The notes below the pieces were generated by a model. The model ran no database searches. It saw only the letters and a program-made list of their open reading frames with translations, and was not told the origin of the DNA. Positions 13,332-27,031 of a DNA stretch of 64,000 nt are shown here, piece after piece (within the stretch, counting starts at the first letter, position 1; each line of letters starts with the position of its first letter). Source of the DNA: an uncultured Desulfovibrionaceae bacterium (GTDB lineage Bacteria; Bacillota; Dethiobacteria; DTU022; UBA8154); assembly GCA_964581355.1 (NCBI GenBank), contig CAZOOA010000003.1, positions 8,503-72,502 on the forward strand, written 5' to 3'. Both the position numbers and the translations under genes were made by a program.

Positions 13332-13354
13332 TATTTCATAATTTAATATGTTCT

Positions 13355-13432
13355 TGAAAAAGGCAAACCTGCCGAAAGGCAGGGACGCAAAGCCATGGGT
13401 CTAAAGCGGTGCCAGGACTGCCAGGTTGCCAG
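13355..13432 (+). ncRNA. c-di-GMP-I (GEMM-I) riboswitch
   Basis: GGCAAACCTGCC-GAAA-GGCAGGGACGCAAAGCC...GGGTCTAA...GCCAGGTTGCC: GAAA tetraloop P2, GCAAA junction, GGTCTAA P3, GTTGCC closing P1. Confidence 0.92.
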
Positions 13433-13472
13433 GATGCATAATCCAACTGCTTTTTTTGCAAGCTGACTGATT

Positions 13473-24763: not shown

Positions 24764-25294
24764 GTGGCAAGGGTTTATGTTTTTATGGGTAGTGACTCCG
24801 ACTTGCCGGTGATGGCCGGTTGCCTGGAAGCATTGGAACGGTTTGGGGTTGAATACGAGGTTCATATATCCTCGGCCCACCGGGTCCCGGAAAAAACAGC
24901 AGAGATGGCGCAAAATGCTGCATCCAGGGGAGTGGAGGTAATAGTGGCCGGCGCAGGAAGCGCAGCACACTTGGCCGGCGTGATCGCGTCGCACACACCC
25001 CTTCCAGTGATTGCTGTTCCCTTTAGCGGTTCGGCGCTGCAAGGGGTTGATGCTCTGTATGCTTCTGTTCAGATGCCCCGGGGAGTCCCCGTGGCCACTG
25101 TGGCCATTGACGGGGCTTTTAATGCTGGTATCCTGGCGGTTCAGATCCTGGGATTGAAGGATGGGCAGTTAGGGGAGAAAATGGCTGCTTACAAGGAAGA
25201 GCTATCCCGCCAGGTCCAGGAAAAAGATGCCAGACTCCAGGAAGTAGGGTATAAACAATACTTGGAGGAAAAGGGGAAAAATAGCCGCAAGTAG
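24764..25294 (+). CDS. purE: N5-CAIR mutase / AIR carboxylase PurE
   Basis: MGSDSD, SAHR, AGAGSAAHLAG, VQMPRGVPVATV. Confidence 0.96.
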   Translation: MARVYVFMGSDSDLPVMAGCLEALERFGVEYEVHISSAHRVPEKTAEMAQNAASRGVEVIVAGAGSAAHLAGVIASHTPLPVIAVPFSGSALQGVDALYASVQMPRGVPVATVAIDGAFNAGILAVQILGLKDGQLGEKMAAYKEELSRQVQEKDARLQEVGYKQYLEEKGKNSRK

Positions 25295-25303
25295 AAGCTT
25301 TCT

Positions 25304-25713
25304 ATACTAACCGCCACGGCCCTTGCGGGCCATGGGCAGGGGACGAAAATGGTTTTCAAAACCGTTTCCCGCCTGGATGAGGTCCGCTTTCCCTGTATCG
25401 GCGACTTTGTCAAGCGGCTAAATAGAAATGAAGCTACCTTTTACGGTATACTCTGGTTGCACGCTCGCCACACCAGGGCAGCGCGGCGGTTGCCGGACCC
25501 GCCCGGTGCATGTGCAGTGAAGATGCAAGTTACTGCGAAACGAGGGCCGGGAGGGGACCCGGCCGGCATGGATGCCGGCCGCCTGGCAGCCGAAGCATGG
25601 AGGCTGAGTCTGCAGGTTGGTCCCCGGAGGGCCAAGTAGAGCAGCTTAACTTGCCTGAAGCGAACCTAAACCGGCGGTTCCGGCATTCGCCAACGCTGCC
25701 ATTTTCATACTAA
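25304..25713 (+). mobile_element. Non-coding hairpin-rich element, family 1 copy B, inside the pur operon
   Basis: ATACTAA at 25304-25310 and 25707-25713; CGAAAATGG (25344-25352) / CCATTTTCAT (25699-25708) inverted pair; 28 of first 29 bp identical to the reverse complement of copy A's end. Confidence 0.7.
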
Positions 25714-25729
25714 AGAAGAGGTGTTGCTG

Positions 25730-27031
25730 TTGATTGAAAGATACACCCGGCCGGAAATGGGTCGCATCTGGACCATGGAGAACCGTTACCAGAAATTCCT
25801 GGATATAGAGATCGCTGTTTGTAATGTTTTGGCTGAAAAAGGACTGATTCCACAGGACGCCGCCCGGGCTATTGAGCAGAAAGCTTCTTTTTCCCTGGAG
25901 CGGATAGAAGAGCTGGAAAAAAGCATCCGGCACGATGTGGTGGCATTCACTCGTTGCGTGGCAGAAAGCTTGGGAGATGAATCCCGGTATTTTCATTACG
26001 GGTTGACCTCCTACGACGTGGTGGATACAGCTCTTTCCCTGTTACTCCGGGAGGCTGTCCAATTAATCGAAAAGGGTTTGGAAGAACTTTTGCAGGCGGT
26101 AAAAATTCAGGCGTTGGCTCACCGGGATACCGTTATGGTGGGAAGGACTCACGGAATTCACGCCGAACCCATTACTCTGGGCCTTAAATTTGCCCTCTGG
26201 TGGGATGAACTGAGGCGTTACCGCTTTCGCCTGGAAAGAGCCCGGGAAGCCATTTCGTACGGGAAAATTTCCGGCGCAGTAGGTACTTACTCCCAGCTGT
26301 CCCCTGAGGTAGAATTGATGGTTTGTAGCCGACTGGGCTTAAAACCGGCACCGGTTTCCACCCAGATTCTGCAGCGAGACAATCACGGGGAGTTGGTTTC
26401 ATTCCTGGCCCTGCTGGCGTCATCCCTGGATAAGTTTGCTGTTGAGATCCGCAGTTTGCAGAAGACCGAGGTCCGGGAAGTGGAGGAGCCGTTTTACCAG
26501 GGGCAGAAAGGATCTTCAGCTATGCCGCACAAGCGCAATCCTGTTTCCAGTGAGCAGGTATGCGGGTTGGCACGGCTGGTTCGCTCTCACGCCCAGGTGG
26601 CTTTGGAAAACATACCTCTCTGGCATGAACGGGATATTTCTCATTCTTCTGCAGAAAGGGTAATTTTTCCCGATGCAACCATCCTGGTGGATTACATGCT
26701 GCACCAGATTACCAGGATTGTTTCCGGCCTGATCGTTTACCCGGATAACATGAAGGAAAACCTGGATAAAACACTGGGCCTGGTCTTTTCTCAAAATGTT
26801 TTGCTTTCCCTGGTGGAAAAAGGAATATCCCGGGAAGAAGCATATGACAGGATCCAGAAGCATGCGATGCAGGCCTGGGAAACAAATACGCCTTTCAAGC
26901 AACTCCTGGAAAATGACTCCTGGGTTTCTTCCTATCTTGATAACACTGAATTAGAATCCTGTTTTGACTACAGTAAGAATTTGCACCATGTACCGGCGAT
27001 TTTCCAGCGCCTGGGGCTGGAGCAGCAATAA
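25730..27031 (+). CDS. purB: Adenylosuccinate lyase
   Basis: IERYTR, RHDVVAF, GRTHGIHAEP, GSSAMPHKRNP. Confidence 0.97.
   Translation: MIERYTRPEMGRIWTMENRYQKFLDIEIAVCNVLAEKGLIPQDAARAIEQKASFSLERIEELEKSIRHDVVAFTRCVAESLGDESRYFHYGLTSYDVVDTALSLLLREAVQLIEKGLEELLQAVKIQALAHRDTVMVGRTHGIHAEPITLGLKFALWWDELRRYRFRLERAREAISYGKISGAVGTYSQLSPEVELMVCSRLGLKPAPVSTQILQRDNHGELVSFLALLASSLDKFAVEIRSLQKTEVREVEEPFYQGQKGSSAMPHKRNPVSSEQVCGLARLVRSHAQVALENIPLWHERDISHSSAERVIFPDATILVDYMLHQITRIVSGLIVYPDNMKENLDKTLGLVFSQNVLLSLVEKGISREEAYDRIQKHAMQAWETNTPFKQLLENDSWVSSYLDNTELESCFDYSKNLHHVPAIFQRLGLEQQ

Follow-up and report, generated by a model that had tools for sequence, protein, structure and literature searches.

What is the 410-nt hairpin-rich sequence that separates purE from purB in this genome, and how did it come to lie within a core operon? 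We analysed it in the window, i.e. the whole stretch of DNA of 64,000 nt, and against the rest of the genome and its relatives. The purE-purB spacer turned out to belong to a dispersed, folded repeat family without open reading frames (ORFs), of which it is a full-length copy of type B.

The purE-purB locus

The purE-purB spacer covers positions 25295-25720 and holds the 410-nt element at 25304-25713. Upstream of purE lies guaA, and the identities of both purE and purB are backed by Pfam. The probable start codon of purB is a TTG at 25730, which fits its homologues, and its ribosome-binding site (RBS) is GAGGTG at 25718-25723. The gap between the 3' end of the element and the purine-rich RBS tract measures 4 nt, in agreement with the "few bp" of the initial annotation. 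The ATACTAA repeats and all hairpins named there can likewise be read from the sequence at the positions given. The features of the locus are:

24764-25294, + strand: purE, encoding AIR carboxylase (Pfam AIRC, E 8e-61); upstream flank of the element
25304-25310, + strand: left ATACTAA, the motif beside which the family inserts
25311-25420, + strand: 5' module (LE), common to all subtypes; query positions 5-126 give approximately 40 matches of 72-92% identity in the genome
25421-25526, + strand: type B-specific interior, missing from the ~300-nt type A and C copies
25527-25654, + strand: Y-shaped core, matched by covariance model R1 (G000:C3:34029-34156, 101.8 bits, E 1e-26) and with covariation
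25655-25713, + strand: 3' module (RE) with the terminus CCATTTTCATACTAA at 25699-25713; ATTTTCATACTA has a conservation of at least 93% across 65 copies, the last base being free
25707-25713, + strand: right ATACTAA, read from the sequence
25714-27031, + strand: purB including its RBS (Pfam Lyase_1 and ADSL_C)

In brief, the LE contains CCGCCAC and two hairpins, one GC-rich (GGCCC-TTGC-GGGCC, 25318-25331) and one with GACGAAAATGG (25339-25371), the latter region including GGTTTT-C-AAAACC at 25351-25363. The core consists of the helices R6, R5 and R4, the tip hairpins T1 (25560-25581, loop ATGGAT) and T2, and purine-rich internal loops. No intrinsic terminator was predicted within the element, and a search for an outward sigma-70 promoter in the RE found none. 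The type B interior carries a weak sigma-70-like site in sense direction, TAGAAA-18-TATACT (25423-25452, 9/12); the scanned region has two sigma-70-like sites, with 0.8 expected.

In nine relatives purE is directly followed by purB, with spacers of approximately 10-140 nt, and the element is found in none of them (0/9). Since these spacers are short and free of the element, the long spacer here is an insertion. Without the element and one heptamer, purE and purB would be 33 nt apart, which is an ordinary spacing. An insertion tolerated in a core operon had been proposed from the sequence, and the comparison with the nine relatives bears this out, the locus being one of about 158 that belong to the family. 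The opposite case, an ancestral spacer conserved between distant relatives, does not hold, as the spacer is not kept at purE-purB in any of the nine. A remnant of purK had also been considered. None of the four spacer ORFs gave a Pfam match at E 0.1 or better, ATP-grasp/PurK included, and the sequence is a multi-copy repeat; a purK remnant or other coding spacer is thereby rejected.

The initial annotation also saw a possible role in mRNA stability or stoichiometry. On this view, the element could be a regulatory RNA with which the host adjusts, within the pur operon, the expression of purB or the decay of mRNA. It is co-oriented with the operon, highly structured and ends just ahead of the purB RBS, as such an RNA might be expected to do. 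We nevertheless regard this as very unlikely: the element is missing from the purE-purB spacer in 9/9 relatives, the same element lies beside unrelated housekeeping genes in both orientations, and it matches no riboswitch or leader family. Rfam covariance models, run at gathering and at permissive thresholds, gave no match to the element in the window, in the isolated spacer or in 20 other copies, the spacer giving only chance-level scores (E of at least 2). The covariance-model check proposed in the initial annotation thus came back empty at the gathering threshold, and membership in riboswitch, ribozyme, intron or HEARO families was rejected on this ground. At another place in the window (13353-13434, + strand) there is a c-di-GMP-I-GGC riboswitch aptamer with a score of 76.5 bits, the gathering score being 59.

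A dispersed repeat family with three subtypes

Used alone as query, the spacer gave approximately 50-66 matches in its own genome. A census with four reference copies found about 158 loci on 77 contigs, together 24.9 kb or approximately 0.8% of the genome. As many as 43 of the 158 loci are located within 300 nt of a contig end, indicating that the repeat breaks the assembly. Contigs C41 and C42 carry identical family matches shifted by 11 nt (4543/4532, 13192/13181 and 18184/18173); they probably represent duplicates or strain variants within the metagenome-assembled genome (MAG).

Three subtypes share the LE, a 5' module of approximately 120 nt, and the RE, the 3' terminus ending in CCATTTTCATACTAA. 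Types A and C are approximately 300-320 nt long and type B approximately 410 nt; the type B copies are the window copy, C11:255 and C40:2595. Copies of the family adjoin unrelated housekeeping genes in either orientation.

A second strain, found in run X7 and with a purE that is approximately 5% divergent, has the same LE at the purE-purB site (window 25304-25332). Beyond 25332 its contig continues into another interior, CAACAGGAGATGAAAAACC..., which suggests that turnover or conversion between subtypes may take place at one site.

A conserved Y-shaped fold

The 410 nt fold with -183.7 kcal/mol on the + strand (z -3.9) and -182.6 kcal/mol on the - strand (z -4.6), and 0/100 shuffles reached as good a folding energy. 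The fold of a single copy begins with two small hairpins on the 5' side, followed by a long irregular rod with a Y-shaped tip. Among 25 copies, both strands fold almost equally well.

Compensatory variation was scored in two alignments. Alignment A2 holds 14 subtypes from three genomes, the own genome and the relatives G001 and G012. Here 87% of the cells are paired, against 26-47% with slid partners, and 74 cells change on both sides, compared with 25.7 in shuffles (0/500). Changes on both sides are seen for 17 of the 33 pairs, a number that 17/500 shuffles reach and that is not decisive alone. Alignment A3 was made with the covariance model R1 (126 positions and 33 pairs, covering the Y-shaped core) and holds 18 copies from ten other genomes, none of which was used for defining the structure. 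In A3, 91.8% of the cells are paired, 31/33 pairs change on both sides (0/500 shuffles), and the covariation score of 0.50 compares with a maximum of 0.10 for slid partners. Over both alignments, 24-47% of the cells are paired with slid partners. The overall score beats 500/500 shuffles in both A2 and A3. These data show that the Y-shaped core fold is maintained by compensatory changes.

The hairpins GGCCGGG/CCCGGCC (25545-25551 and 25558-25564) and GGCCGGCAT/ATGCCGGCC (25561-25569 and 25572-25580) do overlap, at 25561-25564, and had been described as partly exclusive. The overlap is real, but it does not amount to a conserved switch, as only the second hairpin is a conserved, co-varying helix. 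This is T1, CGGCCGGC-ATGGAT-GCCGGCCG at 25560-25581, whose loop reads ATGGAY in the family. The GGCCGGG/CCCGGCC pairing is not retained in other subtypes, and its bases serve two other conserved helices.

In A2, G.T and A.C pairs are about equally frequent (12 to 11). In the independent, order-wide A3, G.U outnumbers A.C by 24 to 8, and unpaired core positions are 67-74% purine on the + strand. Because of this G.U excess and the purine-rich unpaired positions, the + strand, acting as DNA or RNA, is the likelier functional single strand. The purine-rich loops, the 3 to 1 ratio of G.U to A.C and the 31 of 33 co-varying pairs also led us to consider that the 126-nt core may be a functional + strand RNA, guide- or bridge-like or some other cofactor, that serves an unrecognised recombinase, nuclease or reverse transcriptase (RT). 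We think this improbable; if true, the core would define a new class of RNA-dependent mobile element across a whole class of Bacillota.

Distribution across the class

Plain BLAST detected the family in only three relatives. A strict LE pattern scan of genome contigs gave one other species-level genome, G001, a MAG filed as 'Desulfovibrio sp. DeMMO6_36'. With R1, matches were found in 51/115 genomes of the order and in 52/149 species-level genomes of the class, representing 26/60 genera; three genomes with matches lie outside the order. Full-length R1 matches range from E 1e-11 to 1e-36, and copies per genome from 1 to at least 30. In other genomes, too, the element has housekeeping genes as neighbours (prfA, prmC, nikR and a sigma factor). 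In other genera the RE termini are ATAYTAN-like, and several are located directly 5' of an RBS.

The genus g4 is low-copy. Two of its species (G003 and G020) carry the element in the same spacer between yggT (ylmG) and ylmH, antisense to the genes:

L258 5030-5300, antisense: yggT-ylmH copy, in the tail of the division cluster
L259 4780-5050, antisense: yggT-ylmH copy, in the tail of the division cluster

From this shared site it follows that copies can persist for long. On locus L045 (G001:C14) a T-box leader is found at 691-939 on the - strand (86 bits, just below the gathering score of 93), and directly after it a family copy is located between the terminator of this leader and the start codon of the regulated gene.

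Ends and landing motif

Copies differ in their flanks, and this divergence sets in precisely at the two ATACTAA motifs. The termini, ATACTAACCGCCACGG... and ...CCATTTTCATACTAA, are direct and not inverted. No terminal inverted repeats (TIRs) were found; the sole inverted pair, ATGAAAATGG / CCATTTTCAT, is subterminal and on the left side. Nor did we find a target-site duplication (TSD): left and right heptamers share no variants within a copy, and their conservation differs between the sides. Because the variants do not co-vary, the heptamers are not a duplication made on insertion.

For ATTTTCATACTA, conservation is 93% or more among 65 non-tandem RE ends, and the base that follows is A in 47, T in 12, C in 4 and G in 2. 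Among 35 solitary LE ends, CTAA is 89-97% and the preceding ATA 69-77% conserved, with a mild enrichment of T further upstream. Nine RE ends run directly into an LE, and for 19/54 LE ends the preceding sequence is an RE tail, in many cases from another subtype; such head-to-tail arrays have one shared ATACTA(A) motif. Copies land beside an ATACTA-like motif and repeat it at their own 3' end, so each insertion creates a new landing site.

The ATACTA motif contains stop codons on both strands. Approximately 20 convergent genes have a TAG stop codon that coincides with the terminal CTA of an RE, compared with 3 genes for the alternative stopping frame. Such an excess would be expected if insertion took place at native ATACTA sites where genes end. 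The genome contains 189 occurrences of ATACTAA, compared with approximately 431 expected from composition; 74 of the 189 lie within or adjoin family loci. The RE of type B (C11:674, C40:2191 and C7:26336) has the boxes GCATA-18 nt-CATACTA, with GCATT in the window copy (25680-25713). We take these boxes to resemble a forespore sigma-F/G promoter facing the downstream gene, with CATACTA as a presumed sporulation-sigma -10; types A and C are without the -35 part.

A shared core at both ends could also mean that a site-specific recombinase, of the tyrosine, serine or DEDD/IS110-like kind, integrates a small circle, with crossover in the shared 6-7-bp ATACTA(A). The lack of co-variation between the ends, the single core of the tandem arrays, the IS110-type genes in G001 and G012 and the lack of orientation bias, expected for a double-strand reaction, all agree with this. 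We find it unlikely, since there are no dyad-symmetric arms around the core, the right flanks are unlike the LE arm, and neither the young, arbitrarily truncated copies described below nor the conserved single-strand fold would be explained. In addition, no IS110-type gene was found in the own genome, and none beside the family ends of relatives.

Truncated copies and orientation

Approximately 30-35 copies consist of the RE only. They are 16 to approximately 250 nt long, 88-100% identical to the reference copies, and have arbitrary 5' junctions with no common motif. A search around truncated copies for flanking repeats, target duplications or tails found none. There are also approximately 15 LE-only pieces, with 72-85% identity compared with 83-92% for the LE of full copies. 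Judged by these identities, the LE-only pieces appear to be older than the RE-only copies. Young 5'-truncated copies with an intact 3' end thus point to a process of copying or transfer that would begin at the RE.

Within unidirectional gene pairs, 28 copies are co-oriented with the genes and 33 antisense. With replication orientation assigned by local GC skew, 64 copies are leading and 60 lagging, compared with 876 to 205 for genes. The occurrence of copies in either orientation to genes argues against a host-selected function of the sense strand.

Truncation from the 5' end is also what 3'-primed reverse transcription would leave behind, if the family were an RNA-based element with a functional + transcript (guide, bridge, ribozyme-like or retro-mobile). 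The strong covariation of several helices, the conserved loops with 67-74% purine on the + strand and the threefold excess of G.U over A.C in the independent A3 suit this explanation, and one metatranscriptome contig contains the family RE. This contig, a single one of 167 nt from another locus, comes from the sole RNA run with a signal. We still consider an RNA-based element quite unlikely, as the truncated copies are without flanking duplications or tails, there is no co-orientation with host transcription, and G.T equals A.C (12 to 11) within the own genome, G001 and G012. Furthermore, no Rfam family matches, ribozymes included, no RT was found in G001 with its at least 30 copies, and the own genome has only the RT of an ordinary group II intron.

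Search for the mobilising enzyme

Candidate enzymes were examined one class at a time. No Y1 transposase was found, as the MAG, 100% complete, gave no match to PF01797 (Y1_Tnp). Two TnpB ORFs are present, not located beside family ends; TnpB does not co-occur with the family and is missing from the high-copy genome G012. No homology was seen between the tnpB 3' flank and the 3' domain of the element. For IS110-type enzymes there was no PF01548 match in the own genome, and the IS110 loci of G001 and G012 are without family termini.

The sole RT of the genome belongs to an ordinary group II intron on contig C89, and G001, with at least 30 copies of the family, has none. This intron looks intact, extends from approximately 1965 down to approximately 90 (- strand), follows an asparagine-synthase-like gene, and has a 5' end GTGCG, an ORF for a 476-aa RT/maturase and a domain V GAGCCGTGTGCG....

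Y2 transposases were rejected as well. The own genome has only an IS91-family remnant of 115 aa, and Y2_Tnp occurs in 8/115 genomes of the order with no association to the repeat. The remnant is located at G000:C111:3912-4259, has the HUH motif HVHIL, and no family termini are nearby.

An ORF-bearing parent was also searched for. The own genome has no LE...RE pair that encloses an ORF, the scan of genome contigs found only G001, and the viral scan gave chance matches only. In the metagenome scan the matches listed were mostly chance, the real ones being soda-lake contigs of the same organism. As MAGs often lose transposase genes, these negative results are not final.

For empty alleles, Logan contigs from seven soda-lake runs were compared with the window, the organism being present at approximately 10-20x in several samples. 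No clean empty-site allele or excised circle was seen in these contigs, in which the unitigs break at the repeat; movement is for this reason something we infer.

Insertion beside a short motif and the presence of TnpB bring to mind a non-autonomous IS200/IS605-type element (PATE), whose + strand would be excised by a Y1 HUH transposase and inserted 3' of ATACTA, the 3' domain possibly being omega-RNA-like. Here too a fixed short motif is combined with a lack of TIRs and TSDs, subterminal hairpins lie at the element ends, the + strand is favoured (G.U 24 against A.C 8), and the genome has its two TnpB ORFs. Insertions of IS200/IS605 are biased to the lagging-strand template. No replication-strand bias is seen here (64 leading against 60 lagging, with genes at 876 to 205), and the 100%-complete MAG has no Y1_Tnp. 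The TnpB genes are not beside family ends and are missing from G012, the LE and RE hairpins are dissimilar, and RE-anchored truncations would be left unexplained. A PATE is therefore doubtful in our opinion.

Proposed mode of movement

The explanation we favour is that the spacer holds a full-length copy of a class-wide family, inserted after the lineage split, and that the family moves as a single strand in a manner like that of IS91/IS801. As a whole we give it about an even chance. The mechanism of movement by itself is put forward tentatively, with a probability of roughly a third.

We suggest that the 410-nt type B copy entered between purE and purB after the lineage had split from its relatives. 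The family would move as a folded single strand, and an enzyme supplied in trans would cut and join at the ATACTA motif. Transfer may begin at the 3' (RE) end, with the GC-rich hairpin of the 5' (LE) end as its normal stop. Premature stops would give RE-anchored copies, as in the miniature one-ended products of the rolling-circle elements IS91/IS801. The copy in the pur operon is most likely a passive passenger, co-transcribed, without a terminator and leaving the purB RBS free.

Several points speak against this favoured model. No driver was found, the truncated copies are without a target-like start, and the motif is 6-7 nt long. Moreover, the G.U excess in A3 and the purine-rich + strand loops fit RNA as well as single-stranded DNA.

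Significance

Small dispersed repeats are common; this family spans a class of Bacillota whose members are anaerobic and for the most part uncultured. Its large fold, with strong compensatory variation, is not in Rfam, and the family fits no standard transposon class with a testable driver. The landing motif, the polarity and the covariance model are handles with which the missing enzyme could be sought. Structured inserts of 300-400 nt are tolerated by essential operons such as pur, at a distance of 4 nt from an RBS. In annotation, the R1 model would permit masking of such spacers, in place of calling ORFs or novel sRNAs in them. The repeat also fragments MAG assemblies, as seen from the 43 loci at contig ends.

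Comparison with known systems

Like miniature inverted-repeat elements (MITEs), the family is small, non-coding and intergenic, with stable long foldbacks and many copies. Classical MITEs (Correia/NEMIS, ERIC and Nezha) are defined by TIRs and target-site duplications (PMC3184786). Unlike these, the family shows neither.

PATEs are non-autonomous IS200/IS605 derivatives. Like them, the family lacks TIRs and TSDs, inserts beside a fixed short motif and carries hairpins close to its termini. It differs from PATEs in having no Y1 transposase and no strand bias, and in that the GGCCC/GGGCC hairpin of the LE is unlike the RE-proximal hairpins.

Within the Bacillota, the nearest analogue would be bcr1. 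The flanking repeats of bcr1 are TTTAT and are read as target duplications. Both families are from Bacillota, ORF-less and dispersed between housekeeping genes, with a fixed short AT-rich flanking repeat and a compensatory fold. In brief, bcr1 of the Bacillus cereus group is approximately 155 bp, ORF-less, flanked by 5-bp direct repeats and has a fold with compensatory changes; it has no known mobilising enzyme and is possibly a special class of mobile sequence (PMC3184786). The family described here has no sequence likeness to bcr1, its flanking motifs are not duplications, and it is 300-410 nt long with a Y-shaped core.

IS91 and IS801 have no proper TIRs, an essential right end and a left end with a GC-rich stem-loop, and miniature right-end fragments of them arise by one-ended transposition (PMC3189936). 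The family resembles them in that it has no proper TIR or TSD, that a short motif is both target and terminus, and that variable-length derivatives keep one constant end, with a GC-rich stem-loop at the opposite one. Its motif is of 6-7 nt (ATACTA/A) and not a tetranucleotide, and its truncated copies start without a target-like motif, unlike the one-ended products of IS801 (PMC3189936). In further contrast to IS91, Y2 genes are rare in the clade and unassociated with the repeat, no ORF-bearing parent was found, and there is a long conserved internal fold, which is not a known IS91 feature. The family thus falls outside IS91/IS801 on three counts, the transposase, the motif length and the start points of the truncated copies. 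By analogy, the closest resemblance would be to the one-ended products of IS91/IS801, and the best reading of the purE-purB element is that of a passenger mobile element with a putative mechanism of this kind.
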